Shown here: piece by piece, positions 1,209 through 61,263 of the stretch
Numbering within the stretch: position 1 is the stretch's first letter
How the letters are laid out: each line of letters opens with the position of its first letter
Assembly (NCBI RefSeq): GCF_028368995.1
Contig: NZ_JAQNDL010000001.1
Span: 2,976,001 to 3,040,000, forward strand
DNA length: 64,000 nucleotides
Reading direction: 5' to 3'
From: Nannocystis bainbridge
GTDB taxonomy: Bacteria > Myxococcota_A > Polyangia > Nannocystales > Nannocystaceae
The notes under the pieces: generated by a model
Database searches by the model: none
Told to the model about the DNA's origin: nothing
What the model saw: the letters and a program-made list of their open reading frames with translations, nothing else
Position numbers and translations under genes: made by a program

Positions 1209-1264
1209 TGGCTATCGGGACATGCTTGAAGGGACATGCCCAGGCGGGCATGTCCCTTCGGCAA
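1209..1264. repeat. Four phased 14-bp TGTC-N6-GACA-type units; also folds as a hairpin (possible terminator)
   Basis: TGGC-TATCGG-GACA|TGCT-TGAAGG-GACA|TGCC-CAGGCG-GGCA|TGTC-CCTTCG-GCAA. Confidence 0.8.
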
Positions 1265-1408
1265 TTCCTGGACGGATGCTTGTGCGTGCTGCCGACCAGG
1301 GTCGCGAGCGCGATCCCGCTCGGCCGCGGTGAATGCGGTTTATCGCGAGGCGCGATAATTTTCTCGTGCTCCTCGGATCACGGGCCCTCGTCGAGGCACA
1401 CAACCTAC

Positions 1409-4400
1409 GTGACCCACCGCCCCGCCGAGCCTGACCGCGCTCCATCCACGTCGCTCTCCTCGGTGATGCGCGCGGCTCGGGACCGACTGCTCGACCGGCT
1501 CGACGCGCTCCCGCATGCCGCGGACGAGCCGGCTCCGGCAGCGTGGCAGGAGCACGAGGAACGCTACCAGTTCGGCGCGCCGTTCGCGGCCGGCGGGCTT
1601 GGCGTAATCCGCAGGGCTTACGATCGGCGACTCCGACGCGTCGTCGCTGTGAAAGAGCTGCGCAGCGGCGATCCCGCGGCCGCGCGTCGGTTCGAGCTCG
1701 AGGCAGCGATCACCGCCCGCCTCGAGCACCCGGCGATCGTACCGCTCTACGACGTCGGCCGGTCGGCCGACGGCGAGCCCTACTACTGCATGAAGCTGGT
1801 CGACGGTGATTCGCTTGAGCAGTTGCTCGGCGAACAGACGACGCTGGCCGGTCGTCTCGTGCTGCTCGAGCACCTGCTCACGGTCGCCGACGCGATCGCC
1901 TACGCGCACGACCACGGGGTGATTCACCGCGATCTCAAGCCTTCCAATATCCTGGTAGGAGCGCATGGTGAGACGGTGGTGATCGACTGGGGGCTGGCCA
2001 AGGATACCCGCGGCGAGGTGTCAGCCGAGCTCGTCGCCTCGCAGCAGACCGAAGCGCCGGAGGACGCCACGCTGACCGACGCTGGCACCATCGTCGGCAC
2101 GCCTCGTTACATGCCGCCGGAGCAGGCCCGCGGCGAGAAGGTCGACGCCCGCAGCGACGTGTTCTCGCTCGGAGCGGTGCTTTTCCACCTGCTCGTCGGT
2201 CGCCCGCCCTTCGCCGGACTCGAGCGGCAAGCGGTGCTGCACCGCCTGGCCGACGACGCGCTCGAAGACCCCCGCCCGCTCGCCGCCGCCGCGCCGCTCG
2301 AGCTGTTGGCGGTCGTACAAAAGGCCATGTCTCCGCGGCCAGGCGACCGCTACCCGGGGGCGCAGGCGTTCGCGGCCGACCTCCGCCGCTTTCTCACCGG
2401 TCGGTTGGTCGACGCGCACCATTACCGGACCGACGAATTGCTGCGCCTGTGGCTGCGTCGCCATAGCGGCGCGGCGACGGTGGCCGCCCTGGCGCTGATC
2501 ACCCTGGCCGCGACGACGCTGATGTACTTACGAGCGGTCGGCGAGCAGCGTGACCGGGCCGAACTGGCGCGCGCGGAGTCCGAACGTCGAGCCACCGGCG
2601 CCGCACTCGCGCAGGCCCGCGCGGCGCTCGGCGAAGATCTGGTGGAGTCGCTCGCGCTGCTGCGACCCCTCGACCTGGCCGCGCCGGCCGACCTCCGCAG
2701 CGCGCGTCTGATCGCCCTTGCCGCCGCGGCGCGAGGCGCTCCCGATCGCGTGCTGCGCGGGCACGTGCGATCGGTCGGGCACCTGGCCGCGCTCGCAGAC
2801 GGCGGGCTGGTCAGCATCGACGGCGGCGGGGCGGTATGGCGATGGAACTTCGGGACAGGTTCCGGAAGACAGATCGTCGACCTCGCTTCGCACTCGGGGA
2901 CCGTGATCGCAGCCGCCGAGGCGCCGGTGTGGGCGGCGCTGGCCGACGAGCGTGCGCTGGTGTTTCGCGGTGACGAGCCGCCGGAGCCGATCGAGCTCGC
3001 GCCGCTCGGGCAGATCAACTTCTCGAACCGGACGCACCGTTGGGAGCTTTCGCGCGGCGGCGAGACGCTGGCGGCCCTGCAGACCATCAACCGCGTCGAG
3101 GGGCGAGAGTTCGCGTCGGCATATCTGTGGGACCTGCGGCAGCAGCCCGCGCGTCGGGTCGAGCCGGCGCTCGCGGGCGTGTACGACGTGGTGATGAGCC
3201 CCGACGGGCAGACTCTAGCGCTCTTTGACCTCCTGCACGGTTCGCTGCTCCAGCGCGACGGTGCCACCACGCTGCTGCCCGAGCTCGGCGGCTGGCGGCG
3301 GTTCTCGCCGAAAGGCGACCTCCTGGTCGGCAGCAGCGGCTCGCTCGACCTCGCCTCCGGAACGCGCCGGGAGCACGAGGGCAGGCTGCTCGCGGTCACG
3401 CCTGACGACCGCGCCCTCGTGTTGCGGCCGTCCGGACGGACATGGGCCTCGCCGGAGGATCAGCGGCTCGCCCTGATCGACCTGCGGACCGGCACCGAAG
3501 TTTGGGAGACCGACTTGCAACCATCGCGCGAGCTCCGTGGTTCGCTGTGGGAACAGGGTGGCGGTCTCGTGACCACCCCGCGCGGTGATCGCTTCGCGCT
3601 GCGGTACCAACACAACTGGATCCTGGGGTCGATGACGACCGGCAAGGTGCTGCGGATCCTCGAGGTCGGCGACGCCACGCGCGCGACGTTCCTCGCCGAC
3701 GGCAGCTTCGTCGCGGTCCACCATCACGACTTGTGGCTGTGGGATCCCGAGCCATTGTCTGGACCGATAGGCAGCACGTGGATCGCCGCCGCGCCCGATG
3801 GTCAGCACATATTGGTGACAGCGAGGGACGACGAACCCCTGCACGTCCTCGCTCGCGCCGACGCGAGCACCCGACCGCTCGGTTGCCCGGTCGACCCCGA
3901 GGCATGGAAGCGCCGCGCCTGGTTGACTGCCGTCGTGCTCGATGAGCGCGGACGCGTGCTGGCGCGGACCGCCGAGGGCGGGGCGTGCCTGCAGGACGAG
4001 ACTGGCGCCACGCGCACCCTCGCGGTCGACGGCACGATCACGACGGTCGCTCTGTCGCGGCGCAGCGAAAGTTTCGCCGTCGGGCTCGAGGATGGGCGCG
4101 TCCTCCTCTACGGCCGTGCCGACGCCCCGCTGTCGCAATGGCAGCTCGTGGGGCCGCTGGAGCGGCTGTGGGCGCTGACGGGCGGCGCGGACCTCATCGC
4201 TGCGACCCGCGAGGGCCAGGTGTTCGCGCTGCGTTCAGGGCTGGCCGCGCCGCTGTCGCTGGGCACCCTGCGCGAGCCGCAGGAAGTCAGTGCGATCGCC
4301 GTCGCGTCGCACCCGACCAGCGCGACCGCGGTGCTCGGGCTACCGCGCGCCGATCGACTGCTGTTCTACGCCGGCGGCGAGATCACGTCCCGCCCGGCCG

Positions 4401-4822
4401 TCCTTCTGAAGCCGAACCTCGCGTACAGCCCGAGCGGCGCCCGGGCGGCGATCACCCTGGCCGACCGCCGCCTGCTGGTCGTGACCGGCGCGGACGATCC
4501 GGGCCGCGAGATCGCCCTGCCGGAAGGTCACGACATCGACCCGTGGCCGGCGAGGCTCTCCGGGACTCGCGCGCTGCAATTCGTCGACGAGGACACGATC
4601 GAGGCGTTCAGCGACTCGTCGTGGCGGGTCCGGGTCGACCTCGAGCTCGGCGAGGCCTTCGTGATCGAGCACGAGACCTCGCTCGGCTCGCTCGGCCTCG
4701 GGCTGCGAGCGCCCGATGCTGCCGAGCTGTTGCGCGAGCTAGGTGCCCGTTATGAAGTGATCGACCCTGTCCCGAGGGACAGGCTTGAATTCGCGGCGTG
4801 GCTCGCCGCGCGTACCCGCTGA
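1409..4822 (+). CDS. Ser/Thr protein kinase with a TM segment and C-terminal WD40/beta-propeller repeats
   Basis: VAVK, HRDLKPSN, DWGLAK, GTPRYMPPEQ and SDVFSLG; hydrophobic helix; LRGH...W repeats. GTG start at 1409 is an estimate. Confidence 0.88.
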   Translation: MTHRPAEPDRAPSTSLSSVMRAARDRLLDRLDALPHAADEPAPAAWQEHEERYQFGAPFAAGGLGVIRRAYDRRLRRVVAVKELRSGDPAAARRFELEAAITARLEHPAIVPLYDVGRSADGEPYYCMKLVDGDSLEQLLGEQTTLAGRLVLLEHLLTVADAIAYAHDHGVIHRDLKPSNILVGAHGETVVIDWGLAKDTRGEVSAELVASQQTEAPEDATLTDAGTIVGTPRYMPPEQARGEKVDARSDVFSLGAVLFHLLVGRPPFAGLERQAVLHRLADDALEDPRPLAAAAPLELLAVVQKAMSPRPGDRYPGAQAFAADLRRFLTGRLVDAHHYRTDELLRLWLRRHSGAATVAALALITLAATTLMYLRAVGEQRDRAELARAESERRATGAALAQARAALGEDLVESLALLRPLDLAAPADLRSARLIALAAAARGAPDRVLRGHVRSVGHLAALADGGLVSIDGGGAVWRWNFGTGSGRQIVDLASHSGTVIAAAEAPVWAALADERALVFRGDEPPEPIELAPLGQINFSNRTHRWELSRGGETLAALQTINRVEGREFASAYLWDLRQQPARRVEPALAGVYDVVMSPDGQTLALFDLLHGSLLQRDGATTLLPELGGWRRFSPKGDLLVGSSGSLDLASGTRREHEGRLLAVTPDDRALVLRPSGRTWASPEDQRLALIDLRTGTEVWETDLQPSRELRGSLWEQGGGLVTTPRGDRFALRYQHNWILGSMTTGKVLRILEVGDATRATFLADGSFVAVHHHDLWLWDPEPLSGPIGSTWIAAAPDGQHILVTARDDEPLHVLARADASTRPLGCPVDPEAWKRRAWLTAVVLDERGRVLARTAEGGACLQDETGATRTLAVDGTITTVALSRRSESFAVGLEDGRVLLYGRADAPLSQWQLVGPLERLWALTGGADLIAATREGQVFALRSGLAAPLSLGTLREPQEVSAIAVASHPTSATAVLGLPRADRLLFYAGGEITSRPAVLLKPNLAYSPSGARAAITLADRRLLVVTGADDPGREIALPEGHDIDPWPARLSGTRALQFVDEDTIEAFSDSSWRVRVDLELGEAFVIEHETSLGSLGLGLRAPDAAELLRELGARYEVIDPVPRDRLEFAAWLAARTR

Positions 4823-6293: not shown

Positions 6294-6392
6294 TGCACCG
6301 AAGGACATGCTCCAAGGAGCATGTCCTTCGCGCCAGGCCCCGTGACAGCCCGCGAAACGCGAAAAGGGACATGCCCCAAAGAGCATGTCCCT
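6294..6392. repeat. TGTC-N6-GACA-type unit cluster (two hairpins) between convergent genes
   Basis: TGCA-CCGAAG-GACA|TGCT-CCAAGG-AGCA|TGTC-CTTCGC-GCCA, then GACA|TGCC-CCAAAG-AGCA|TGTC. Confidence 0.75.
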
Positions 6393-7864: not shown

Positions 7865-8742
7865 ACTGCCTGCCCACTTTCCCGCCAGCCTGCTGGCCTG
7901 ACGGTCATGTGCTTCGCTTCGCACTACGCAGTTATCCGAGCCGATCGCTCATTGCAAAAAATTTGTGTTCTTCACGAGGGCATGTAGTCGGGTGTAGGTC
8001 CGACTCACACTCTCGCAAACCGGGCCCTGGCAGCCGAGCGGCGGCGAATCCACGGCGACGATCCTCCCGCAGGGCGTACGGCCACCCTCGCGGGTCCGCG
8101 GCCGGTATGTCTCATGGGACAGGTTTTCCCTTCGAATCGTGCAGCCGGGCCCGCCGCCCGCGTGCCCGGCTCGAGGCCCTCGATCACATCGGATCGTCGC
8201 GGATCGTTTTTCAGGGAGATCGGACGCGCCCCCCGCTCGCGACCGACGAAGTCGGCTGTCCTCGCGGACAGGACCGGTGCTCAGGCTTTCAGGTCCCGAT
8301 CACAGCACTCCGATCGATCGGCCAGGGCCGGGAGCGCAGCAGGCGCGACGACCATGCCCGAGCCCGATCGACGGAGCAAATTTCGGGCCTGAAGACCCCG
8401 ATCCGCCAAATTGTCGCGGTCCGGCGATCCACACATGCGGATCGGGGCACCAGTCCCCGGGGACAGCTCGGCGATTGGCCGCGAAGGCCCGGAAAGCGCC
8501 CCTGAGGGCCACCAGGAGCCCGTTGCGCGTCGATTCGGGAGGGCCCAGAGGCCGCAGGCCGACCAGGCGGTCTCCGCGAGCGATCGGCGATGGGCCGGGA
8601 GAGCGATCGATGATTCGCCCGCGTGCGGCGGAGGACCGATCGGCGAATGGCCCGGGCGCCCGCGATCGGTCCCGAAGGACAGATCGGCGATTGGCGGGCA
8701 CGCGGCCGCTGCCCGATCGGCGATTCGCGCCGCGGCCACGAA

Positions 8743-9594
8743 TCAGCGCAGGGCAGCCCGCATGGCGGCGACGACTTCGGGAGCGAGCGAGCGGCCGAGC
8801 CACAGCGCCTCGGCGAACACGCCCTGCCACAGCAACATCTCGAGGCCGTCCTGGACCCGGGCGCCGGCCGCCTCGGCGCGGTCGAGCAGGCCGCCCGCCG
8901 GCCGCGGGTAGACGATGTCGACGACGCGAGCGCCAGGGGCGAGACCGGCGACCAGGGCGGTCGCGGGCGCCGGGTAGTCGGTCGGGCCGTGGGCCATGCC
9001 GACGGTGGTGCAGTTGACGAGGAGGTCGACCGCCGCGCCGCCGCCGATGGCGTCCCAGCCGACGGCGACGACAGGCCCGCCCGCCGGCAGACCGGCCGCC
9101 AGCGCGGCAGGATCGCGGCTGACCCATCGGACATGTCCTCCGGGACCGAGCAGCTCGCCGGCGATGGCGTCGACGACGGCCCGCGCGGCGCCACCTGACC
9201 CGAGGACCATGGCCTGCTGGACATGTCCCGAAGACATCTCGCGGACGGCGGCCGCGAAGCCGCGCCCGTCGGTGTTGTGGCCGACGATCGCGCCGCCTGT
9301 GAAGACGAGGGTGTTGACGGCGCCGATCCGCCGCGCCTCGGGGCCGAGGCGGTCGCACAGGGCCAGGGCGGCCTGCTTGTGCGGGACCGTGAGGTTGAGC
9401 CCGCCGAAGCCGAGCGCCCGGGCGCCGTTCACGGCCTCGGCCAGGCGCTCGGGCGCGACGTGAAAGGCGAGGTAGCGGTGCGGCAGGCCGAGCGCCGCGA
9501 ACGCGGCGGCGTGCATGGCCGGCGAGCGCGAGTGCGCGACCGGATCGCCGAGCACGCCGAAGCACTTCGTTAGCTCACCGCCGTCGGTCGTCAT
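8743..9594 (-). CDS. aroE: Shikimate dehydrogenase
   Basis: GDPVAHSRSPAMH, NLTVPHK, GAVNT, GHNTDG, GSGGAARA and DGLEMLLWQG. Confidence 0.93.
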   Translation of the reverse strand: MTTDGGELTKCFGVLGDPVAHSRSPAMHAAAFAALGLPHRYLAFHVAPERLAEAVNGARALGFGGLNLTVPHKQAALALCDRLGPEARRIGAVNTLVFTGGAIVGHNTDGRGFAAAVREMSSGHVQQAMVLGSGGAARAVVDAIAGELLGPGGHVRWVSRDPAALAAGLPAGGPVVAVGWDAIGGGAAVDLLVNCTTVGMAHGPTDYPAPATALVAGLAPGARVVDIVYPRPAGGLLDRAEAAGARVQDGLEMLLWQGVFAEALWLGRSLAPEVVAAMRAALR

Positions 9595-12153: not shown

Positions 12154-12247
12154 GCGCGGCACCCTACACCAGTTCCAATGCGGCCCCAAGCACGCCGCAG
12201 CCGGACGACTCGCCCGCGCGCCGGGGCTCGAGTATCCTGCGTCGGCG

Positions 12248-12644: not shown

Positions 12645-12728
12645 TGGCCGCAAAGACATGCCCGATCGGGCATGTCTGCCCGGACATGCCTGTGTGAGCA
12701 TGTCCATGGGGACATGTCGGTTCAAGCA
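12645..12728. repeat. Six phased 14-bp TGTC-N6-GACA-type units
   Basis: TGGC-CGCAAA-GACA|TGCC-CGATCG-GGCA|TGTC-TGCCCG-GACA|TGCC-TGTGTG-AGCA|TGTC-CATGGG-GACA|TGTC-GGTTCA-AGCA. Confidence 0.9.
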
Positions 12729-14532: not shown

Positions 14533-14588
14533 TGTCTTCATCGACATGACTTGAAGGACATGTTCGCATGGACATGTCCTTCAGAGCT
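14533..14588. repeat. Four phased TGTC-N6-GACA-type units between convergent genes
   Basis: TGTC-TTCATC-GACA|TGAC-TTGAAG-GACA|TGTT-CGCATG-GACA|TGTC-CTTCAG-AGCT. Confidence 0.88.
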
Positions 14589-16673: not shown

Positions 16674-18952
16674 CTATACCTTGAGGGTCCGCGCGATCGG
16701 CAGGTTGCGCACGCGCTGGCCGGTGAGGGCGAAGATCGCGTTCGTCAGCGCCGGCGCCACGGGGGGCACGCCCGGCTCGCCGACGCCGCACGACGGACCG
16801 TCGTCGGCGACGATCTCGACGTGGATCGCCCGCGGCGCCTCGGGGAAGCGCATCAGGCGGAAATCGCGGAAGTTGCTCTGCACGGTCGCGCCCTGCTGCA
16901 TCGTGATCTCGCCGTAGAGCGCGTGGCTGAGGGCGAAGATCACGGCGCCCTCGAACTGCGAGCGCACGCGTTCGCGATTGACGAGGGTGCCGGCGTCGAG
17001 GCAGGTCCAGACCTCGTCGACGGCGATCTTGCCCTCGGGCCCGTGGACCACGCTGACGACCACGGCGACGTAGGTCAGGAAGCTGCGGTGGACCGCGAGG
17101 CCGAGCGCGCGGCCCTGCTGCTTGCGCTGGTCCCAGTCGGCCAGCTCTGTCACCCGCTCGATCACCCGGCGGTGGCGCGCCGTGTCGATCGGGTGCTCGG
17201 TCAGCGATTGACCGTAGTTGGGCAGCATCTCGACCCCGAGCTCCTCCGGCGTGACGATGCGCGGCGGGCCGATGATCTCGAGCAGCGTCTCGCGCGGGTC
17301 GCTGCCGCGGGCCTCGGCGATCTCGGCGATGAAGCTCTGGACCGCGAACGCGTGATAGATGTTGGCGACCGAGCGCAGCCAGCCGATCCGCGTATAGGCC
17401 CGCGCTTCGCAGTTCTCGGCGCGCACGTTGGCGATCGCCAGCGGGACGTCGAGCACGCCCTGTTGCAGCTCGCCCGGGGCCGACAAAGCGGTGTCGCTGA
17501 AGGTCGAGCCGATCGGCGGGAAGGCGGTGCGGTGCTCCCACGCGACCACCTTGCCGTCGCCGTCGAGCCCGGCCACCAGCCGCTGGGTGCTGACCGTATG
17601 ATAGTAGTCGTGCTGGATGTCGTCCTCGCGGGTCCACTGGATCCGCACCGGCGCGCCGGTCGCCTTGGCCAGCAGCGCCGCCTCGACCACGAAGTCCGGC
17701 TTGGATTTGCGACCGAAGCCGCCGCCGAGCATCGTCACGTGGATGGTGACGTTCTCCTCGTCGAGCCCGAGCGCCTGGGCCACCGAGCTGCGCGAGGCCT
17801 GCGGGTTCTGCGTCGCGGCCCACACCTCGCAGCTCTGGCCGTCGAACGTGGCGACCGCGGCTGGCGGCTCCATCGTCGCGTGGGCCAGGTGCGGCACGTG
17901 GTACACGGCCTCGACCTGCCGCGCCGCGCCCGTCAGCGCCGGCCCGACGTCGCCGACCTCGCGGACCACCACGCCCGGCAGGCCGACGGCGGCCAGCAGC
18001 GTCTTGCGGTAGGTCTCGGAGTCGTACTCGCCGTTGGCGCCGGCGGCCCAGGTGATCTCGAGCTGGGCCCGGCCTCGCATCGCCGACCACGTGTCGTCGG
18101 CGACCACCGCGATCCCGCCGAGCGGCTGGAACGCGAACGGGGGCGTCGGCGCCGGCAACGGCACCACCGCGCGCACGCCCGGGATCGCCAGCGCCTTGGT
18201 GGCGTCGTGCGCCGTGGCCTTGCCGCCGACCACCGGCGGGCGGGCGATCACCGCCGTCCGCATCCCCGGCAGCACCACATCGGCGCCGTAGAGCGCCTGC
18301 CCGGTGACCATCGCCGGCCCGTCGAGCAGCGGCAGCTCCTTGCCGACGTGCAGCAGCTCGGCCTTGGGCCGGAGTAAAATGTCCTTCGGGACAGGCAGCT
18401 TCGCGGCCGCCAGCGCCAGCTCGCCGAACCCGAGCGAGCGCCCGCTGGCCTCGTGCCAGACCGCGTGGTCGTGGGCCGTGCAGGTGCTCGGCGCCACCTT
18501 CCACTGCTTGGCCGCCGCCGCGATCAACATCATCCGCGCGCACGCCCCCAGCTTGCGCAGCGCGTCGTAGAAGCCGCGCACGCTGTGCGACCCGTCGGTG
18601 TTCTGATCGCCGTACGCCTTGTCGCCGGGCGCTTGCACGATCTCCACCCGGCCCATGTCCGCCCCCAGCTCGTCCGCGATCAGCACCGGCAGCGAGCTGC
18701 GCACGCCCTGGCCCATCTCCGAGCGCGCGCACACGATCTGCACCGCGCCGTTCGGCGTCACGTGGACGAACAGGTTGGGCCGCAGGCCCGCGCCCTCGGC
18801 CTCCGCCGCCGCTTTGGCCGCGGGGTCGGTGGCCGGCGGCAGCTCCGGCGCGGCGCTGGCGAACGAGCCGAGCGCGAGGCCCGACAGCGCGCCGCCGAGG
18901 CCGGCCAGGAAGTGGCGGCGGAGCAGGCGGATCGGCGGGCCCGACATCGCGC

Positions 18953-24764: not shown

Positions 24765-24782
24765 ACCTGTCCTTCGGGACAT

Positions 24783-26094: not shown

Positions 26095-26174
26095 TGTCCG
26101 AAAAGACATGCTGTCTCCGCTTCGAAGTCACGACCATCGCAATGCATGTTTCTTCGGACATGTCCTCGGAGACA
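26095..26174. repeat. TGTC-N6-GACA units in a divergent intergenic region
   Basis: TGTC-CGAAAA-GACA at 26095; TGTT-TCTTCG-GACA|TGTC-CTCGGA-GACA at 26147-26174. Confidence 0.8.
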
Positions 26175-28622: not shown

Positions 28623-28830
28623 TGAAGCGCGGTTCATCGCCGTTTGCCAGCTGGGGCCTCCGAGCCGCGAGTTGGCCGCTGTCGCCCCGCGCGGGCGGAT
28701 GAATCCTGTCTCGGCTCTCTTGAACCGCGCTTCTCCCCTCGACTAGGCTGAGCCTCGTTCCCGCCGGCCGGCGCGCCCCGCCGCCTGTCTCGAGGGACAT
28801 GGCTCCAAGGACAGCATTCGAGGCTTCGCA

Positions 28831-31682: not shown

Positions 31683-31724
31683 GGTCCTCGAGGACATGTC
31701 GTAATCGACATGTCCTAACGAGCC
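31683..31724. repeat. Three phased TGTC-N6-GACA-type units between convergent genes
   Basis: GGTC-CTCGAG-GACA|TGTC-GTAATC-GACA|TGTC-CTAACG-AGCC. Confidence 0.85.
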
Positions 31725-36605: not shown

Positions 36606-37100
36606 TCAGCCGCGGCGGCACAGCTGATCGACCAGGCGCAGCAGCGTCGGCACGCGGTGCGGCCCGTGCATCGCCCTCACGTGCGCGGCGGCCTCGTCGT
36701 CGTCCATACCGATGGCCGTGACGAACAGGGGCCGGCGGCTGTCGCCGCGCAGCACCTCGCGGGCTGGCGCGCCGCGGAACGGATTCTTGGCCACCCCGAC
36801 CACCGGCGTCGTCTCGCCGAGCGCGTGATAGAGGTGCGCCCCGAGGCCCGGCCGGTCGGGCCCGAGCCACACGTGGCCATCGACCACCACCACCGAGGGA
36901 GGCGCCGGGCAGCGGGCCAGCGCCGCCAGCAGGCACGGCAGCTCACGCGTATAAAACGCCCCGGGCGCGTACTCGGCCGCGGCCGGGCTCGTCACCGTAT
37001 AGCTCTGAAGGACATGTTCTTCGGACCATGTCTCGAAGAGCACACAGGCAGTCACCGCCGCGTCCGGGCGGTAGTCGACGTCGAGCGCGGCGATCGCCAC
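36606..37100 (-). CDS. nfi: Endonuclease V family protein
   Basis: ALDVDY, YAPGAFYTRELP, VVVDGHVWL, GVAK and RVPTLLRLVD. Confidence 0.85.
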   Translation of the reverse strand: MAIAALDVDYRPDAAVTACVLFETWSEEHVLQSYTVTSPAAAEYAPGAFYTRELPCLLAALARCPAPPSVVVVDGHVWLGPDRPGLGAHLYHALGETTPVVGVAKNPFRGAPAREVLRGDSRRPLFVTAIGMDDDEAAAHVRAMHGPHRVPTLLRLVDQLCRRG

Positions 37101-37355
37101 CCCTCGTCGATACCAGCTCGGGCCCGCGTGCGCGAGGGCCAAGCCGCAGCGTCTCAGGCGCGATCTTGCGCCACCCGTCGCCCGCCCGGTCCGCGCCGAC
37201 GCTCCGGCGAGCGGTGCGACCCGCCCGGCTGGACGGCGAGCAGGGCGACCCCGGCGAGCGCGCTCGACTTTCATCAAACATGACCTCCGGGACATGTCCC
37301 GAAGCACCTGCTCGAGTGATTGTCGCCGACGCGCGGACAAGATACTTCCTTCGGG

Positions 37356-39326: not shown

Positions 39327-39393
39327 CCCTCATGACATGTCCATGAGAGCATGTTCTCTACGACATGTTCTATTCGACATGTCTTGAAGAAAA
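39324..39393. repeat. Five phased TGTC-N6-GACA-type units filling a convergent gap
   Basis: TGAC-CCTCAT-GACA|TGTC-CATGAG-AGCA|TGTT-CTCTAC-GACA|TGTT-CTATTC-GACA|TGTC-TTGAAG-AAAA; the first TGA is the upstream stop codon. Confidence 0.88.
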
Positions 39394-43700: not shown

Positions 43701-44408
43701 CTCGGCGATTTCGCCGGCCTGCGCGCCCGCGCCGAGACCTGGCAGCACGAGGCCGAGGACATCGGCGACCGCTTCGCCCTCGTCGTCGCCATCCTCTACA
43801 CCGCCCACGCCGCCCTGGCCGCCGGCGAGCCCGAGCGCGCCCGCGCGGCTGTCCGCAAGGCCCTGTCCTTGTGGACATACGACGGCTTCTCGTTCCAGCA
43901 CTGGATCGCGCTCGGGATCGAGGTCGGCTGCGACCTCCACGACGGCCGCGGCCGCGACGCCTGGGCCCGGGTCGAGCGGGCCTGGCCGGCGCTGGTGCGC
44001 TCGCAGCTGATGCGCATGCAGATCCCCCGCATCGACGCCCGCCGCCTGCGCGCCTGCGCGGCCCTGGCCGCCGCGCGGGCCGGCCAGCCCCACCTGGTGC
44101 GCTTCGCCGCCGCCGACGCCGACGCCCTAGCCCGCGAGCGCATCGAGCTGGCCCACGCCAGCGAAGACCTCATCCGCTCCCAGCTCGCGGCCCTCGACGG
44201 GCGCCCCGCCGACGCCCTGCTGCGACGCGCCGCCGACCGCTTCGGCGCCGGCCACATGCCGGCCCTCGCCGCGGCCGTGCGCCACGGCGAGGCTCGCCTC
44301 GCCGGCCGCGACACTTTTGATGCCGAGCTCGCGCTGGGTCGCTGCGAGATCCGCGACCCGGCCCGCTGGGCCGCGACGGTCGCACCTGCCCTCTACGACA
44401 TGTTCTGA
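40737..44408 (+). CDS. Ser/Thr kinase fused to a STAND-like AAA ATPase and helical repeats
   Basis: LGHGAMGVV, VALK, HRDLKPSN, DFGLA, FVGRAGEL, GPSGAGKS, IDDLQWGD and GSPLFIE. Confidence 0.9.
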   Translation: MHKDAPADAPDGDSFAAQFAAAEPPRPREAPAEHARARLAAQLFGAASPVQPLGPYAVLRELGHGAMGVVHEGRGPGDQQVALKTLRRPDPAAIARLKREFRNVVDVGHANLVAVYELALDPARGEWYIAMEYVPGDSWLAHLRPAGGRAPEAVIRAALAQLCSGVYALHRAGLLHRDLKPSNVLVSGEGRLKIVDFGLAQLADGGYEGLAGTAGYLAPELLAGAPPSPASDWFAVGVMLYEALSGRRPRVPPGPTPIDGAPADLLALCRDLLAENPAARPSGRDLLLRLGLDAPPTPSPVFVGRAGELATCVRALERPPALLLLVGPSGAGKSALLAHLAADLRDRRGALVLHGRCYAGESVPYKALDGVVEALAKHLETCPEKHVLSTMPEESADLRRVFPALQRAVGATGGALAAGAVPRETRRRAVAALRRLLTELARARPIVLAIDDLQWGDADSARLLGELLAPPDSPAIVVAASVRSDVRPTSAFFAELDAAPLACPIHEVALAPLGPADAEQLAATILAERPGRGDDPGLRQRLAAAIARESQGSPLFIEAIAQRRGDAAADVATSLDGALQAEVAALEPGERHALERLAVAGRPLRRDLALRQGPGAAARVLDGAALAVLGARRLVRPSGEGDSVETYHDRVREVVLLRLGAAERRAHHRVLALALAAARDPDPDELVLHFHGADERELACAWALRAAERAAAALAFARAAALYEKALSWGTYPSEHVLKYTIARAEALVHAGRCAEAAPVYLTAAALAPTRLQELELRGRAVEHYLVSGRVDAGLRVLGPLAHELGLPFPASTAGTVLRLLTELARLALARRRAPREPVAAADVPAELRLRIDLCWSAGKGLGFIDPIRAAAISAQGLRLALASGEPRRIARAAAYLTIVDINAPDPRRASAAARELALARGLATRLSDPHLTGLTTILTGVAALNNGQWQRALAGVEAGADLLRARCVGVHWERAIAHAMAMHALLMLGDFAGLRARAETWQHEAEDIGDRFALVVAILYTAHAALAAGEPERARAAVRKALSLWTYDGFSFQHWIALGIEVGCDLHDGRGRDAWARVERAWPALVRSQLMRMQIPRIDARRLRACAALAAARAGQPHLVRFAAADADALARERIELAHASEDLIRSQLAALDGRPADALLRRAADRFGAGHMPALAAAVRHGEARLAGRDTFDAELALGRCEIRDPARWAATVAPALYDMF

Positions 44409-44456
44409 AGAACATTTCTTCAGAGACATGTCTACTTGAACATGTCTCGAAGTATC
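44387..44456. repeat. Five phased TGTC-N6-GACA-type units overlapping the kinase stop codon
   Basis: TGCC-CTCTAC-GACA|TGTT-CTGAAG-AACA|TTTC-TTCAGA-GACA|TGTC-TACTTG-AACA|TGTC-TCGAAG-TATC. Confidence 0.88.
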
Positions 44457-44745: not shown

Positions 44746-44904
44746 GCGCGAGCCGGCCGCCGTCGCAACCTCGGCGACTCGGACCATCCTCCATCTGCAG
44801 GCGGGCCCCTCACGGGCATCGACACGCTGTCTCGCCGATCGAGGTCGCGTGACCCCGACCAGCCCTCGCCACCTGTCCCTTGGGACCTGTCCTCTCGCTA
44901 TCCC

Positions 44905-47895: not shown

Positions 47896-49644
47896 TCACG
47901 AGTGCGCTGCGTGCGGAGAATCAGCAGCCTCTGCGCAAACACGCGGGCCGATGAAATCGACCTGCAGCCCACCTCCGGGCGGACTCTCGAACACCAGCCC
48001 TATGCCGTGCAGCGCGGCGACGCGGGCCGCGATGTGCAGCCCGAGCCCCTGCCCGTCGGGCGCCCGCGTGCGCGCGGCGTCGCTGCGAAACCCTCGCTCG
48101 ACCAGCCGCGTCAGCTCGTCCGCCGCCACGCCCGGGCCGTCGTCGACCACGCGCAAGCGGAACCTGTCACCGCCGACACGATCGAGCAGCACCGCCACGT
48201 GCCCGCCCGCGCGGTTGTGACGGATCGCGTTGTAGACGACGTTGCTCACCGCCTGCTCGAGCAATGTGACATCGCCTTCGACGTGCAGCGGCGACTCCGG
48301 CACCGCGCCGTCGAGCTCGACCTGCAGCCGCCGCGCGATCGGCCGGTGACGCGCCAGCACCCGCTCCACCAGCACGTCCATCGCCACCGGCTCGCGGTGC
48401 AGCCGCGGCGCGTCGGCGTCGATCTTGGCCATCACCGCCAGGTTGTGCACGATCGCCGCGATGTAGTGCGCCTCGCCCATCGCCGCCACCACAGCCGCGC
48501 GATCGATCGCCGCGCCCGCGCTCGCATTTTCGTTCAGCTCGCTGAGGTGGCCCTGCAGCACCGTCAGGGGGATCATCACGTCGTGCGTGGTGTTGGCCAG
48601 GAACTCGCGCAGCGCCGCCTCGCGGCGATCCTTTGCCGTCAGCTGGGCCCGCACCTCGCGGCCCGCGGCCTCGAAGGCGCGCGCGAGCTCACCGACCTCG
48701 TCGCTGCCGTCGATCGGCACCGCGCTCGCGTAGCCGGCCGACGCCGAGCGCCGCACCGCCTCGGTGAGCCGGCGGATCCGCCCGACGATCGGCCCCATCG
48801 CCAGCAGCACCGCGGCGAACAGCGCCACCAGCGGCGCCAGCCAGATCCGCGTCGGCGGCAGCACCGCGCCCAGCCAGCCCGGCACCGTGCTGCCCTGCGC
48901 CAGCACCCGCGCGCACGGCCCCGCCTCCCACGGCATGCGCACCAGCACCTCGACCTCCGCGCTCCACCACGACCGCGCCCACGAACGCGGCCACGTCGCG
49001 ACCTCCGGCGTCGCGACCTCCGGCGTCGCGACCTCCGAAATCGCGACCTCCGAAGTCGCGACCTCCGAGGTCGCGATCGCCTGCGCCAGCGGCTCCGCGA
49101 TCGCCGGCGCCGCCGGGTTGGCCGACCGCAGCGCCGCGTCATAAGCGAACAGCACCGCCGGCCGCCCCCGCGGCCGCCCATCGTCGAGCGGCGGCCCCAT
49201 CTTCGCCTCGCGACCTCGCGAGTCACTCGCCTCCGACTCACGACCTCGCGAGTCACTCGCCTCCGACTCACGACCTCGCGAGTCACTCGCCTCCGACTCA
49301 CGACCTCGCAAGTCACTCGCCCCCGACTCACGACCTCGCAAGTCACTCGCCCCCGCCGCACCCGACTCACGGCCGCGCGAATCACTCGCCGCGCGCCCTC
49401 GCGTTTCACTCGCCTCGCCCGCACCCGGCGGCCCGCGCCCTGGCCCCATCTCGCCGCCCCAGCGGCTCGGATCGGCCTCGCAGCGCTCGCGCCCGCCGGG
49501 CTCTTGCATGCGCGCCAGCGCGAAGCCGGCCAGCGCCTCCTCGGCCGCGCGGTGGCGGGCCACCGCGTCGAACAGCACCAGCACCACGATCATCGGGATC
49601 GTCACCGCGATCGTCGTCAGCGCCAGGCGCAATCGCAGCTTCAT
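47896..49644 (-). CDS. HAMP sensor histidine kinase with tandem-repeat inserts
   Basis: Two TM helices, [19 protein letters not shown]-box, [14 protein letters not shown] and GLGL; ATGA overlap with the response regulator. Confidence 0.9.
48995..49079. repeat. 15-bp in-frame tandem repeat (EVAT[S/P]), about 6 copies
   Basis: GTCGCGACCTCCG(GC/AA) repeated. Confidence 0.85.
49211..49420. repeat. 30-bp in-frame tandem repeat ([10 protein letters not shown]), five copies plus degenerate copies
   Basis: CGACCTCGC(G/A)AGTCACTCGCC(T/C)CCGACTCA at 49211, 49241, 49271 and 49301; the 49331 copy diverges at its 3' end. Confidence 0.9.
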
Positions 49645-56447: not shown

Positions 56448-56532
56448 TCCGAAGGACCTGCCCGAAGGGGCCTGTCTGAAGGGGCCTGTCCGGATGGACA
56501 GGTCCCTTTCGTCATGCCCTGGAGGACATGTC
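56445..56532. repeat. Six phased TGTC-N6-GACA-type units in a convergent gap
   Basis: TGAT-CCGAAG-GACC|TGCC-CGAAGG-GGCC|TGTC-TGAAGG-GGCC|TGTC-CGGATG-GACA|GGTC-CCTTTC-GTCA|TGCC-CTGGAG-GACA|TGTC. Confidence 0.88.
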
Positions 56533-56546
56533 CTGCGACGCCGCGC

Positions 56547-57329: not shown

Positions 57330-57537
57330 GAGCGCTCTCCCATACCGACGACCGTACCACCGAACCCCGCGGCCCGCGTCGGACGCGGATCGGCGGCGCT
57401 CCCGACCGCTCCGGGCACCTCTCCTCGACGCCACCGGTCTCCAGCGCCTGACAGCCGAACAGCGACCGATCGAACTCGAAGTCCCCCGGATGTCTCGAAG
57501 GACATGCCCCAACGTGCATGTCTCATTCGCAGTCGAG

Positions 57538-58719
57538 TCACTTCTCGGCGATCGTGACGAGCCCGGTGTCGACGTAGCGCTGCTGCGCCTCGGCGCCGGT
57601 CAGGTAGGTGTCGTAGCCGGGAGCGTCGCGCAGCCATCGCCCGAAGTAGGCGACCACGTAGGCGCGCGCGAGGTCGTTGACGACCGCGTTGGCGAGGGTC
57701 GGCTGCTGGCAGAACGAGCAGGTGATCCCACACGAGGCGACGTCGTCGAGGAAGCTCATGTGATTGGCGCCGTTGACGGTCACCTGCAGGGCCGGGGCGT
57801 TGGCCTCGGCGTAGAAGGTCGTGAAGTTCTCGGCCGCCGGGGCGCAGGCCATGAAGCCGGCGGTGTCGAGGGTCTCGCCGAGGAAGCCGAGCGGGATGGC
57901 GATCGGCAGCATCGCGCTGGCGTCGGGGCACGCCTGCATGTTCGGGCACATGTTGGCGCCGTCGACGGGATCGAGGGTGAGCGAGGCCTTGACGCGGGCG
58001 TCGTACATGGCAGCGAGCACGGAGATCTTGCCGCCGAGAGAGTGCCCGGTGGTGCCGACGTTGTTGAGGTCGGAGATGTCCCCGAGGACAGGATGCTCGC
58101 CGGCCCAGTCGAGCGCGGCCAGCACCTGCTTGGCGTTGGCGACGTGGTCGACGGTGCCGAAGATGTAGCCGGCGTGGTCGACGTTGAGGACCACGTAGCC
58201 GTGCGACGCGAGCCGCGTGGCGTAGCCGGTGTACTGCGTCGGCGGCAGGTTGAAGCCGTGGGCGATCGTCACCACCGGGTACGGTCCGGCCTCGGGCCCC
58301 GACGTCGGGTAGTGCGCGGTGACGCCGATCATCTCACCGTCGACGTCGATCTCGCCCGCGAGCTCGTCGAACTGCCACGGCCCGTCCTGGTCCGGATCGT
58401 GGACCTCGCCGTCCGGCTCGCCAGTGGTGCCGTCGGTCGTGGTCGAACCAGTCGTATCGGGACCGGTCGTGGCCGCGGTCGTCGAGGTCGGTCCGCTCTC
58501 GGTGGTCGGCCCGTCGGTCGTCGTCGTCGTCGTCGTCGTGCCACTCGTCCCGGTCGGGCTCGTCGTCGCAGTGGTCGGCTCGTCCCCGGTGGTGCTGCCG
58601 GTACCGACCCCGGTGCTCGTGCCGGTGCTCGAACCAGGGTCGGAGTCCGTGCCCGACGACGTCCCGCCGCCGTTGCACGCGATTGTGAGGACAAGGAGAG
58701 TGAGGACGGACCGCTGCAT
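57538..58719 (-). CDS. Alpha/beta hydrolase lipoprotein (chlorophyllase/cutinase-like)
   Basis: TIAC lipobox, Thr linker, AHGF, LASHGYVV, GHSLGG, LDPVD and ANHMSFLD. Confidence 0.88.
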   Translation of the reverse strand: MQRSVLTLLVLTIACNGGGTSSGTDSDPGSSTGTSTGVGTGSTTGDEPTTATTSPTGTSGTTTTTTTTDGPTTESGPTSTTAATTGPDTTGSTTTDGTTGEPDGEVHDPDQDGPWQFDELAGEIDVDGEMIGVTAHYPTSGPEAGPYPVVTIAHGFNLPPTQYTGYATRLASHGYVVLNVDHAGYIFGTVDHVANAKQVLAALDWAGEHPVLGDISDLNNVGTTGHSLGGKISVLAAMYDARVKASLTLDPVDGANMCPNMQACPDASAMLPIAIPLGFLGETLDTAGFMACAPAAENFTTFYAEANAPALQVTVNGANHMSFLDDVASCGITCSFCQQPTLANAVVNDLARAYVVAYFGRWLRDAPGYDTYLTGAEAQQRYVDTGLVTIAEK

Positions 58720-58997
58720 GACGCCACGTCTAGCGGCCGCCCCCCTGGCGAGCAATCGCGCAACGCTCACGAAAGGCCGCCAAATCCCCGGTACAGCGCC
58801 GTTTCGCCGGCCCCCCGGCGTGGCCTTTGGGCGGCACCGCGTTCATCGTCCCGGCCGCGCCGCCGGGCCAATCGCCGCACCGGCGAGCGCGCGCGAGGTC
58901 TGGACGCCACGTCGATCGAGTTTCGCGTAGATTCGCCGGTCACCCCCGCGAACTGCCGTGCACGGTCCGGTCGCGGGCGGCCCGGTCGAACCTAATG

Positions 58998-59086
58998 GGC
59001 TCTCGAGGACATGTCCGAAGAGACATGTCATCGCCCGCCGCGCCGACCGGGAGAGGCTCGATCTCACATGTCCCTGAGGACATGTC
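58998..59086. repeat. Two short TGTC-N6-GACA arrays
   Basis: GGCT-CTCGAG-GACA|TGTC-CGAAGA-GACA|TGTC, and CACA|TGTC-CCTGAG-GACA|TGTC. Confidence 0.85.
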
Positions 59087-59089
59087 GCC

Positions 59090-60370
59090 TCAGCGGTAGC
59101 GCCGGATGTACATCTTCATCAAGAACCGGCGGAACCAGATGTTCACCGCCGCGAAGTCGACCACCAGCCGGCCGTACACCACCAGCGACGCGTCGCCGAT
59201 GCTGACCCCATGCGGAAAATCCTCGCGCAGCGTGTGCGGGCGCAGCGGCGGCACCCCGTGCGGGTAGCCCGGCGCCTCGCGGGCCAGCCGCGTCAGGTTG
59301 TCCGTGGTCAGCCACGCCTGCCACAGGCACTCGATCGCCCGCTGCATCGTCGGCCACTCGCCGGTCGCGCTCTGCACCCGCGCCGCGTCGCCGATGGCGA
59401 AGATGTCCGGCCGGGTCGGCTTCGGCGTGGCGAAGCACTGCAGCGTCGGCCCGACCGCCAGCCAGCCGTCGGCGGTGCGCGGCAGCGACAGGCCCGCCAG
59501 CGCCGGCGCCGGCCGGACGCCACCGGTCCAAAAGGCCATGTCGCAAGGGACATCCGTCGCGTCGGCCCCGGGCGGCCGCAGCGTGGCGGTGCCGGCGGCC
59601 AAACGCGTCAGCCGGGTGTTCAGCCGCAGCTCGACGCCCTGGGCCCGCAGGTGCTGCTCGGCCTTGTGACCGGCGCGCTGGCACAGGTGCGGCAGCAGGC
59701 GCGGGCCCGAGTGGACGAGGACGACCCTGGGGGCGCGCCAGCCGGCCGGCCGCACGCGCGCGAGGCGGCCGAGGTCGCCGGCGAGCTCGACGCCGGAGAT
59801 CCCGCCGCCGGCGACGACGATGGTGGGCCGCTCGCCGGCGAGCCCGCGGGCCTCGCCCTCGCGGTAAGGGCCGTCGCCGCTGCTGACCCGCCGCGTCGTC
59901 TCGCCGTCCGGCCCGAGCAGCGCCGCCAGTTGCTCGGCCGCGCTGGCGAACTCGCCCTCGAACTTGTAGCCGACGAACCGCTCGGCCCCCTCGATCGCGG
60001 CCGGCGGCGCCAGCACCGAGCCGAGCGCGACGACGATGAAGCGCCCGCGCAGCCGCTCGCCCGAGGCCAGGGTGACCTCCTTGCGGTCGGGGTCGAGGCC
60101 GATCACGTCGCCGATCACGTAGCGGGCCTCGGGCCGCTTCTCGACGCTGCGCCGGGTCGGCAGCACCGAGGTGCCCGGATCGATGCGCCCGACCAGCCGC
60201 TCCTGCACCAGCGGGATGTACGGGTGCTCGGCCTGGCGATCGACCACGACGATCTTCAGCCCGCGCCCGCGGGCGCTGCGACGCAGCTGGTGGACCAGCT
60301 CGATCCCCGCGAAGCTGGCCCCGAGGATCAGGACGTCGGCCGTCGCGGCGTCATGTGTCTCTTCGGACAT
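59090..60370 (-). CDS. FAD-dependent oxidoreductase (type II NADH dehydrogenase-like)
   Basis: ILGASFAG, VVALGS, VAGGGISGVELAG and IFAIGDAA. Confidence 0.87.
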   Translation of the reverse strand: MSEETHDAATADVLILGASFAGIELVHQLRRSARGRGLKIVVVDRQAEHPYIPLVQERLVGRIDPGTSVLPTRRSVEKRPEARYVIGDVIGLDPDRKEVTLASGERLRGRFIVVALGSVLAPPAAIEGAERFVGYKFEGEFASAAEQLAALLGPDGETTRRVSSGDGPYREGEARGLAGERPTIVVAGGGISGVELAGDLGRLARVRPAGWRAPRVVLVHSGPRLLPHLCQRAGHKAEQHLRAQGVELRLNTRLTRLAAGTATLRPPGADATDVPCDMAFWTGGVRPAPALAGLSLPRTADGWLAVGPTLQCFATPKPTRPDIFAIGDAARVQSATGEWPTMQRAIECLWQAWLTTDNLTRLAREAPGYPHGVPPLRPHTLREDFPHGVSIGDASLVVYGRLVVDFAAVNIWFRRFLMKMYIRRYR

Positions 60371-60408
60371 GTCTCTTGCTCGCTGTCCCTCGGACCATGT
60401 CCTAAAAG

Positions 60409-61263
60409 TCAGTTTCCGAACACGTGCACGCGGTCGCGCACGCCCGCCGGGAACCGCTCGCGCGCCAGCCGCTCGGCCTGGGCCCGGCTGTGGCGCATGC
60501 TGCGGTGGACCAGCACCAGCGCCTCGCCGGTGAACCGCTCCGACTCGGCGACCAGCTCGTCGAGGTGGGTGTGGCCCCACTGGCGGGTCTGGGCCACGTC
60601 GCGCTCGTCCGTCCAGCTGGTGACCTCGTGGACCAGCACGCGGCAGCGGCGGGCCAGCTCGTGCTGCTGGAAGAACTCGATCTGGGTGTCACCGGTGACG
60701 CAGATCAGCGGCTCGGTGTGGCTGTCGAGCACGTCGGTGCCGGCCTTGCGCAGCGCGGCGATCTCCGGCCCCGGCAGGCCGACGTACTCCGGCTTCAGGC
60801 GGCTGGTGGTGCGCTCGACGATCCACGCGAGCGACGGCACCCGGTGCGTGGTCCGCAGGCAGTGCGCCGCGCACCCGCGGGACAGCCCGCCGCCGAGGGG
60901 GAAGCGGTCGCCGGGCGCGTGCCCGTGCAGCTGCCACTGCAGGTCGAAGCCCTCGATCTCGGCCCAGCCGCGGAGGATCCGCGTCAGCGGCTCGTGGACC
61001 TCCTGCGGCACGTGGATCGCCGGCGGCCCCGCGCGCATCAGCTGGCGCTGCGACACCAGGTAGCCGACGCCGCCGAGGTGGTCGGCGTGCCCGTGCGAGA
61101 CCAGGACCGTGTCGTACTTGAGCGCGCCGGGCGGGCACATGCCGACGTCGAACATGACCCCGAGCTCAGGGACCATGAGACAGGTCTCGACCCCGCCGCG
61201 GGTGACGCCGCGCAGGGTGAGACCGCCGACCTTGAGCTCGTCGAGGACCGCGGCGTCGTGCAT
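60409..61263 (-). CDS. MBL-fold metallohydrolase (RNase Z-like)
   Basis: FDVG.CP, SHGHADHLGG, THRVPS, VTGDT, GHTH and VHRSMRH. Confidence 0.85.
   Translation of the reverse strand: MHDAAVLDELKVGGLTLRGVTRGGVETCLMVPELGVMFDVGMCPPGALKYDTVLVSHGHADHLGGVGYLVSQRQLMRAGPPAIHVPQEVHEPLTRILRGWAEIEGFDLQWQLHGHAPGDRFPLGGGLSRGCAAHCLRTTHRVPSLAWIVERTTSRLKPEYVGLPGPEIAALRKAGTDVLDSHTEPLICVTGDTQIEFFQQHELARRCRVLVHEVTSWTDERDVAQTRQWGHTHLDELVAESERFTGEALVLVHRSMRHSRAQAERLARERFPAGVRDRVHVFGN

Follow-up and report, generated by a model that had tools for sequence, protein, structure and literature searches.

The stretch of DNA described here is positions C1:2976001-3040000 of an 11.05-Mb Nannocystis assembly (5 contigs, 71.5% G+C), and we refer to these 64 kb as the window. 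The G+C content of the window is 70-77%, and a TldD/PmbA-type protein that it encodes is 97% identical to proteins from Nannocystis punicea FL3 and N. exedens DSM 71. Scattered between, across the ends of, and within its genes is a short palindrome, TGTC-N6-GACA, which stands alone or abuts further copies to form arrays in which CATG recurs every 14 bp. A preliminary description of this DNA listed 24 perfect copies of the palindrome and estimated that less than one was expected in 64 kb. All 24 are perfect copies, and there is a 25th at 48165; in 100 shuffles that preserved the dinucleotide composition, the mean was 0.59 copies and the maximum was 3. We confirmed that the observation is real, that it holds across the genome, and that it is much stronger than a single window shows. 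The sites form a dispersed family of short palindromic repeats, which has a fair chance of being a new DNA-binding system.

To place the sites relative to genes, we used a self-trained hexamer model, which called 8325 genes (85% coding) and is least reliable for start codons. Pfam matches on ten open reading frames of the window agree with the gene choices of the model. Several arrays in the window lie between convergent genes: two 2-unit arrays at 6301..6392, three phased CATGs and one end unit at 14533..14581, a 2-unit array that fills a 43-bp intergenic region at 31690..31717, four phased CATGs at 39331..39386, and a composite array at 56452..56535, in which units of a CCTG/CAGG variant are followed by two CATG units. 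Other arrays lie just beyond a single gene. Three phased CATGs (1216..1257) are 3' of the plus-strand gene at 478-1206, and there is an orthologous array in another Nannocystis genome, G001. Five phased CATGs (12652..12721) are within 15 bp of the stop codon of a DksA/TraR-type zinc-finger gene (12152-12640, plus strand), and two 2-unit arrays (59005..59089) are 3' of the minus-strand gene at 59090-60370. There is also a 2-unit intergenic array at 37274..37301, a degenerate array (two CATGs over three slots) in a 38-bp intergenic region at 60356..60404, five CATGs over seven slots at 22887..22991, a 2-unit array with an end unit at 57491..57525, and, at 26095..26174, an isolated unit (26095) followed by a 2-unit array with an end unit (26140-26174). 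Predicted coding sequences contain 2-unit arrays at 9203..9230, 34545..34572, and 37008..37035. The gene for a STAND Ser/Thr kinase (40698-44408, plus strand) has a 3-unit array in frame (41873..41914), isolated perfect units at 41135..41148, 42916..42929, and 43864..43877, and an array of three CATGs over four slots that overlaps its stop codon (44394..44449).

The remaining sites are isolated perfect units. These lie in intergenic regions (8108..8121, 8257..8270, and 28786..28799), between convergent genes (24768..24781), near the 3' end of a gene (4768..4781, with the form CTGTCC-N4-GGACAG), or within coding sequences (18380..18393, 58077..58090, and 59539..59552). The additional site that we identified (48165..48178, within a coding sequence) is the weakest case, as it has no C or G beside its half-sites and matches at 7 of 8 core positions in other species.

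Across the genome, TGTC-Nk-GACA occurs 3663 times at k = 6 and 29-175 times at every other k from 0 to 19, with an echo of 984 copies at k = 20. A scan of spacings had been proposed in the preliminary description, and the spike at k = 6 is present genome-wide. The opposite arrangement, GACA-Nk-TGTC, is found 2237 times at k = 0 (these are GACATGTC junctions), 1305 times at k = 14, and 645 times at k = 28. Pairs of CATGs show the same register: there are 3736 pairs at a lag of 14 bp, 2073 at 28, 1586 at 42, 751 at 56, and 383 at 70, as compared to 66-179 at the listed lags that are not divisible by 3. Thus, the predicted autocorrelation peaks at 14, 28, and 42 bp are all found, and they continue to 56 and 70 bp. 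In an unbiased scan of all 5-mers, the 14-bp signal sits in ACATG, GACAT, CATGT, ATGTC, TGTCC, and GGACA; in a minor variant, CATG is replaced by CCTG or CAGG. Predicted coding sequences contain 1380 perfect sites, versus 96-105 in three synonymous-codon shuffles, so the excess in coding DNA withstands the codon-preserving control that had been suggested. In the 1.66 Mb of intergenic DNA, there are 2238 perfect sites at k = 6 and 13-33 at the other values of k from 3 to 9. Separately, GATCGATC has 984 copies in the genome, versus 2-247 for control 8-mers of the same composition, which are mostly palindromes.

The consensus of the unit is MTGTCC-N4-GGACAK. It is dyad symmetric, 14-16 bp long, and has 5-bp half-sites that are 9-10 bp apart. 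CATG appears in the arrays because units of TGTCC-N4-GGACA abut end to end, which yields GGACATGTCC junctions; the conserved core, RRCATGYY, has GGACATGTCC as its best form and repeats at 14-bp intervals. Between cores are four bases that have an excess of A and T and follow a YYRR pattern. The YYNNRR bias of the spacers that was noticed in the window is present genome-wide, with 854 different spacers among the 3663 perfect sites. If we allow at most one mismatch in four for an abutting half-site, then 859 of the 3663 perfect units have one on both sides, 1633 have one on a single side, and 1171 are isolated, which is about 10 times the baseline of 29-120. The isolated units favor an outer C before and an outer G after (CTGTCC-N4-GGACAG).

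We defined an array as a series of CATGs that are chained at 14 or 28 bp. The genome has 2074 such arrays, which together contain 6213 CATGs and span 2-20 unit slots: 1003 arrays have 2 slots, 368 have 3, 279 have 4, 241 have 5, 133 have 6, 37 have 7, and 13 have 8-20. Among these 2074 arrays, there is no preference for multiples of three. The abutting, phased arrays of the preliminary description are thus borne out, but their size (2-9 units) needs to be revised, as arrays in the window have 2-7 slots and the genomic maximum is 20. A half-core that completes a terminal unit is present at about 45% of array ends. The 20-unit array mainly keeps one half-site (GACATG) per 14 bp and has little potential for pairing. 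Some of our analyses used a looser set of arrays, in which a distance of 42 bp between CATGs was also accepted; as this distance is divisible by 3, the set caught chance pairs in coding DNA. The looser set underlies the 20-unit array, the distances in tandem regions, the T..G counts, the tests of folding by strand and of T-runs, the hairpins of array-free convergent regions, the profile of array ends, spacer complementarity, mutual information, strand symmetry, the identity of neighboring units, the counts of proximity to genes and tRNAs, the 125 genes that lie between two arrays, and the 250-kb bins.

We compared the window to the corresponding regions of four other Nannocystis genomes (G001, G005, G007, and G010). 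The entire window is collinear with all four, in aligned blocks that mostly have 82-95% DNA identity (one has 78%) and are interrupted at intergenic regions. Where both flanks of an intergenic region could be mapped, an array was present in both genomes in 17 cases, in the window only in 12, in the other genome only in 6, and in neither in 68. Several of the 12 window-only regions have degenerate arrays in the other species, with CATG changed to GATG, CAGG, or ACAT. Across the five species, array positions and half-sites are conserved, while the spacers and the number of units vary in intergenic arrays. For instance, each of the five species has 2-5 CATGs, phased at exactly 14 bp, past the stop codon of the DksA-type gene (12640), and by eye, about half of the bases between the CATGs differ. 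The array at 22887..22991 has a counterpart at the same place in 4/4 species, and the array within a coding sequence at 37008..37035 is retained in 4/4.

Individual sites are conserved as well. Over 65 alignable site-by-genome comparisons, identity was 0.904 for the eight defined bases, 0.803 for the spacers, and 0.794 for the 40-bp flanks. Several isolated intergenic units match at 8/8 bases in all four species, with flank identities of 0.70-0.84: the cores at 8257..8270 and 28786..28799 are 8/8 in 4/4 species, and the unit at 8108..8121 also keeps 6/6 of its spacer in 4/4 species, with flanks at 0.70-0.81. The core within the coding sequence at 59539..59552 is likewise 8/8 in 4/4 species, and that at 4768..4781 is 8/8 in G001. 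In the kinase gene, the three CATGs of the array at 41873-41914 occupy three different codon phases; all three are retained in G005, G001, and G007, and two of three in G010, while spacers and amino acids change.

The arrays do not seem to be young. Neighboring units are at least 8/10 identical in 5.5% of cases, versus 2.1% of random pairs, and the 10-mers between CATGs are fully identical in 1.2% of neighboring units, versus 0.07% of random pairs. Because neighbors are barely more alike than random pairs, the arrays are not young tandem duplications, and we rejected simple tandem duplication as their origin. Of the 3736 inter-CATG 10-mers, 2371 are distinct, and the most common occurs 23 times, as compared to about 11 times in a simulation with independent positions. 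We did find a case of duplication, using a search that was biased towards 14-bp lengths: in G007, in the orthologue of 22260-22364, a lone CATG and its surroundings are tandemly duplicated by exactly 14 bp, which yields a phased pair that is absent from the other species. The variety of spacers had been used to argue against slippage; this argument is right for most units, but a minority do look like the products of slippage. As judged from these sequences, units are duplicated at times, but most arrays are old, with units that have diverged and half-sites that have not.

The motif is abundant only in Nannocystis, and it is sparse in a few sister genera. A strict two-core pattern has 393 copies in the studied genome, is present in 10/10 other genomes of the genus (2-238 copies), and has 15 and 5 copies in single genomes of two other genera. 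In the same sample, there were 0 copies in 11 further genera of the family (one genome per genus) and in 16 genomes from elsewhere in the class, outside the family; controls also gave 0. We also counted occurrences of three CATGs in phase in 73 genomes of the family. There are 1670 in the studied genome, 1005-1162 in five other large Nannocystis genomes, and 2-62 in five genomes of the genus that are small or incomplete. Genus g4 has 2-107, genus g2 has 0-8, genus g15 has 0-17, and all other genera have 0-4; a reversed-pattern control gave 0-2. The highest count outside Nannocystis is from G061 (107), and the remaining 56 genomes of other genera have 0-17. Low counts in incomplete metagenome-assembled genomes (MAGs) are not proof of scarcity, because MAGs may under-assemble repeats. 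In a MAG labelled as Nannocystaceae, whose protein is 74% identical to the query, arrays lie 27 bp and about 170 bp past the orthologous stop codon, as the counterpart of the locus at 56452..56535. Also, genus g32 (G041-G048) has a triple-phased CATG locus with A/T-rich spacers, which is near-identical in at least 7 of the 8 genomes and has a similar counterpart in G022; a 9-base motif from this locus was not found in that form in the studied genome.

Most of the arrays are outside of genes: of the 2074, 1502 are intergenic, 182 lie across a gene border, and 390 lie within predicted genes. Convergent intergenic regions have 2.84 arrays per kb, and 613 of the 1160 such regions of at least 60 bp contain an array. 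Tandem regions have 0.81-0.84 arrays per kb (260 of 1484 and 313 of 1560 regions of at least 60 bp), and divergent regions have just 0.28 (127 of 1434). Isolated units follow the same rule, with 0.68 per kb in convergent regions, 0.31-0.32 in tandem regions, and 0.12 in divergent regions. Within tandem regions, the median array is 35 bp past the upstream stop and 174 bp ahead of the next start (n = 767). An array lies within 120 bp after the stop codon of 1784 of the 8325 genes, and within 120 bp before the start codon of 408. The map of density relative to the replication origin and terminus that the preliminary description proposed shows an even spread and no such pattern: each of the 43 full bins of 250 kb has 27-78 arrays.

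A minority of arrays, about 300, lie in frame inside genes. Of the arrays, 382 are wholly contained in predicted genes, and for 301 of them the nearest gene end is over 150 nt away. Within these 301 arrays, the G+C content at third codon positions (GC3) is 0.65, as compared to 0.93 upstream and 0.92 downstream, and GC3 is at least 0.85 on both sides for 246 of them. The in-frame arrays, the placement at 3' ends and between convergent genes, and the restriction to Nannocystis and a few sister genera had all been missed in the preliminary description.

Are the arrays canonical intrinsic (Rho-independent) terminators? They do sit at the 3' ends of genes and can form hairpins. However, they have no T-run: at least four Ts within 10 nt are found downstream of 8.9% of arrays and upstream of 6.5%. 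Textbook terminators exist in this genome, as all three rRNA operons (C1:2062846, C1:4462953, and C5:64878) have the same GC hairpin and T-run directly after the 5S gene, without a CATG array. Furthermore, only 5 of 104 tRNA or tmRNA genes are followed by an array, and the arrays within genes do not fit. We consider this explanation to be highly improbable. In 60 kb of the window, we found 17 terminator-like sites, versus 12.1 expected from shuffles, and no matches to Rfam 15 at the gathering score in the 64-kb window. A search for RNA evidence yielded assembled contigs with shares of the stretch of at most 0.20 and no raw reads; transcript ends do not show in contigs.

The statistics do not show a selected hairpin structure. 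Mutual information between mirrored positions of the unit is 0.00-0.02 bit, and Watson-Crick pairing at mirrored positions is close to its expectation (observed/expected of 0.484/0.433, 0.630/0.595, 0.569/0.564, 0.312/0.280, and 0.268/0.265). The only dependencies that we found are between neighboring spacer bases (0.16-0.25 bit), which is what readout of DNA shape would predict. In tandem regions, where one strand is transcribed, 5 of 7 mirrored positions are symmetric (p = 0.26-0.99). Folding energy has no strand bias (389 arrays fold better on the sense strand and 372 on the antisense strand; p = 0.11), and neither do tetraloops (46 UUCG versus 57 CGAA; 46 GNRA versus 34 of the complement). 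We therefore rejected the idea that asymmetry of tetraloops or of G-U pairs proves a role in RNA, as the counts are essentially symmetric. The hypothetical stem of an isolated unit has only 5-6 bp.

We tentatively favor the view, to which we give a little less than an even chance, that the arrays are close-packed recognition sites for a candidate dyad-symmetric DNA-binding protein. Conserved half-sites, drifting intergenic spacers, and the absence of hairpin covariation together indicate direct recognition of sequence. A sequence-specific reader of double-stranded DNA is favored because the unit is a dyad with half-sites one turn apart and its positions are conserved independently; because dependencies are confined to neighboring spacer bases and the unit is symmetric whatever the direction of transcription; and because isolated units are in excess and conserved, while packing is gap-free at the length of the unit. 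In this model, a homodimeric protein of the Nannocystis lineage would read MTGTCC-N4-GGACAK, and units would stand alone or abut; abutting would give rise to the strict register of 14 bp as well as to the GGACA|TGTCC junction. A dimer would occupy 14 bp and be turned by about 120 degrees relative to its neighbor, and three units (42 bp) would make four helical turns; this is geometry rather than a result. Arrays would grow by the occasional duplication of a 14-bp unit, and selection would hold the half-sites while the spacers of intergenic arrays drift. Sites would accumulate where they are least harmful or are useful, that is, at the ends of transcription units, chiefly between convergent genes, and rarely in promoter regions. 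We infer that dimers would pack cooperatively and have a boundary or nucleoid role at 3' ends. A more specific idea, which we consider doubtful, is that Nannocystis marks the ends of about one in five genes and one in two convergent gene pairs in this way: a putative filament of dimers would act as a protein-based boundary against read-through, collisions, or supercoiling, and would replace the U-tract terminators that protein-coding genes mostly lack.

Several observations weigh against a DNA-binding protein. First, the arrays fold strongly in silico: the mean energy is -21.6 kcal/mol over 767 arrays in tandem regions, and the best examples reach about -70 kcal/mol, with adjacent cores that pair as 10-bp stems with 4-nt loops. 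Second, there are small signs of pairing on the sense strand. Full complementarity between spacers two units apart is seen in 3-5% of cases, versus 1% by permutation; two mirrored positions in tandem regions are asymmetric (-1 versus +4, p = 2e-5; -2 versus +5, p = 0.013); and at one stem position, the sense strand has T..G 247 times and C..A 148 times. Third, thousands of sites and expansion in a single lineage are typical of selfish repeats, and tolerance alone could explain placement at 3' ends. Fourth, profile and neighborhood searches of the genome did not identify a cognate protein, so we infer binding from the DNA side. The dimeric binder with 14-bp steps that was first suggested is partly supported, as the sequence statistics favor it (a dyad unit, independent mirrored positions, strand symmetry, and over 1100 conserved isolated units).

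The studied assembly is 90% complete. One candidate was a PadR-family regulator. In PMC4517056, the consensus operator of this family is given as ATGT-N8-ACAT; in our genome, this pattern has 2000 copies, versus 16-63 at other spacings, and the internal units of arrays read cATGTcc-N4-ggACATg. A PadR operator thus fits inside the internal units, but isolated units favor an outer C and G over A and T. Also counting against this candidate, and against a binding protein more generally, the PadR domain (PF03551) had 0 matches in this 90%-complete genome, and the same search was positive in 14/14 control genomes. We therefore rejected PadR as the binder: the consensus fits, but the genome has no match to the domain. 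We also rejected an autoregulated binder encoded beside the two longest arrays, as their neighbors are a YbjQ-family protein, a pyridoxal phosphate (PLP) enzyme, a DUF2330 protein, and a protein without a Pfam match. At 20 loci of the sparse sister genera (G011 and G013), gene contexts are mixed and no neighbor is shared, save for a pair of tyrosine recombinases. This pair consists of two near-identical (phage-integrase-like) genes of G011, L129:3434-4702 and L131:3530-4798, which are at a distance of about 400 bp from arrays of two units; the L129 array and its flanks recur identically in L130.

Alternatively, the arrays might resemble repetitive extragenic palindromic (REP) sequences or bacterial interspersed mosaic elements (BIMEs). 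Neighboring cores would then pair, either in the transcribed RNA or in single-stranded DNA, and would stabilize 3' ends or serve as terminators without Us, or the arrays would be tolerated selfish DNA that is spread by a trans-acting enzyme. This is possible, but we consider it less likely than a binding protein. The placement of the arrays is as for REPs: they are mostly intergenic, about 10 times denser in convergent than in divergent regions, and closer to the preceding stop than to the next start. The strong folding, the small excess of G-U-compatible pairs on the sense strand, and the complementary spacers also fit, as do the restriction to one genus, the wide variation in copy number between lineages, and the recent 14-bp duplications that gave rise to some units. 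Convergent regions that lack arrays have other GC-rich hairpins of similar stability (-0.466 versus -0.477 kcal/mol per nt). And the in-frame arrays within genes resemble the Rickettsia palindromic elements. On the other hand, the stems lack covariation, and there is neither strand nor tetraloop asymmetry. Long perfect hairpins are not the rule, given how rarely spacers two units apart are fully complementary. Hairpins of the 1171 isolated units would be too short to be useful, but these units are conserved and in excess; the spacers are too diverse for copies of a master element; and the arrays deep within genes are a poor fit to a role in termination.

We also looked for the machinery of REPs. 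The REP-associated tyrosine transposase (RAYT, a Y1 transposase; PF01797) had 0 matches in the 90%-complete genome, and the same search was positive in 6/14 control genomes. No gene family has more than 4 members among the 125 genes that are flanked by arrays on each side. With no Y1 transposase and no recurrent flanking gene, we rejected a RAYT/REP system. The profile of 2 x 1689 array ends showed a half-core (TGyCC) and then background, with no GT(A/G)G head and no target-site duplication. According to Nunvar et al. 2010 (PMC2817692), REPs are defined by the GT(A/G)G head, by a palindrome that is kept through complementary changes, and by rayt genes between inverted REPs, and BIMEs are regularly spaced REPs in alternating orientation. 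The Nannocystis family shares many features with REPs and BIMEs as described there (PMC2817692): short, high-copy palindromes that are specific to a genus or species, are mostly extragenic, cluster at 3' ends and between convergent genes, and are regularly spaced. Unlike REPs, it has no GT(A/G)G head, RAYT gene, or covariation that preserves stems; its unit is 14 bp rather than about 35 bp; its units abut without a linker; and it includes over 1100 single units and about 300 in-frame intragenic copies. As for BIMEs, the spacing is regular, at exactly 14 bp; there are no linker motifs at array ends; and the unit is dyad symmetric and its own inverse, so its orientation is undefined. As the three defining features of REPs are absent, we conclude that this is not a member of the REP/RAYT family, despite the similar placement.

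We compared the arrays to other kinds of repeats as well. Miniature inverted-repeat transposable elements (MITEs), which have a defined length, terminal inverted repeats, and a target-site duplication, were rejected because the length varies from 2 to 20 units, the inter-CATG 10-mers are so diverse, and there is no signal of flanking duplication. The repeats of CRISPR arrays are 23-50 bp long and have unique spacers of similar length. The Nannocystis arrays have a 10-bp conserved core, a 4-bp variable part, and about 2000 dispersed loci, so we rejected this type of array as well; we did not look for leaders or cas genes.

If the sites are indeed bound by a protein, then the closest mechanistic analogues may be head-to-tail operator arrays that are bound by cooperative dimers, such as the 8-bp met-boxes of MetJ, the 7-bp heptads of the omega repressor, the iterons of ParR-type plasmid centromeres, and the hexamers of Fur. 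Like the Nannocystis arrays, these have short dyad or oriented sites in a gap-free, fixed register, with variable length and independently conserved positions. However, they number a handful per replicon, at promoters or centromeres, whereas Nannocystis has about 2000 arrays that avoid promoter regions. The Noc-binding sites (NBS), the SlmA-binding sites (SBS), matS of MatP, and parS of ParB are dispersed palindromes of 12-16 bp that are read by dimers, but these have tens of copies with a regional bias and no phased arrays. The Nannocystis sites number in the thousands, are evenly spread, are tied to the ends of genes, and form phased arrays. In the literature that we could search, which excludes most subscription journals, neither this motif nor a repeat family of Nannocystis or another myxobacterium is described.

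It is unclear what force maintains most short dispersed repeats, such as REPs, BIMEs, DNA uptake sequences (DUS), and highly iterated palindrome 1 (HIP1). The Nannocystis family is an unusually clean case, with a 14-bp dyad in exact register and thousands of copies, and the conserved unit is a simple bait for finding a reader protein. If such a protein does exist, it would be a new chromosome-wide DNA-binding system that is tied to the ends of genes, in large-genome producers of natural products.

The sites might instead be a by-product of a biased process and have no chromosomal binding role. Such processes could include DNA uptake and recombination, enrichment of RCATGY by methylation or repair, or ectopic gene conversion. 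The DUS of Neisseria and the uptake signal sequences (USS) of Haemophilus have thousands of short, lineage-specific copies, both in genes and in spacers, and are often paired at the ends of genes. The Nannocystis sites, too, are short, specific to the genus, and present in thousands, both within and between genes, with pairs at the ends of genes; they are spread evenly along the chromosome; their core includes the 4-bp palindrome CATG; and arrays are found at three breakpoints of a swap in gene order (see below). However, uptake sequences are asymmetric and are not phase locked, and they are not known to be palindromic, whereas the Nannocystis sites are dyads in a fixed phase. An exact 14-bp register of up to 20 units is not explained by these processes, including methylation or repair. 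CATG itself is not unusual, with 39,940 copies in the genome as compared to about 28,700 expected from arithmetic on base composition. Overall, we consider a biased process to be improbable, although not as improbable as intrinsic terminators.

The swap in gene order involves the blocks at 56484-57399 and 57537-58961, which are in the opposite order in G005, G010, and G007. There are arrays at all three of its breakpoints (56513, 57503, and 59010/59067). This coincidence suggests that arrays may serve as recombination substrates. On the practical side, arrays break alignments, coincide with this swap, and in about 300 cases lie in frame within genes, so they should be considered in the annotation of Nannocystis genomes, in the assembly of MAGs, and in genetic engineering. 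Finally, in the region orthologous to 44409-44904, long tandem repeats of the CCTGTCC type (the CAGG/CCTG variant) fill the intergenic region in G007 and G001 but not in the window.

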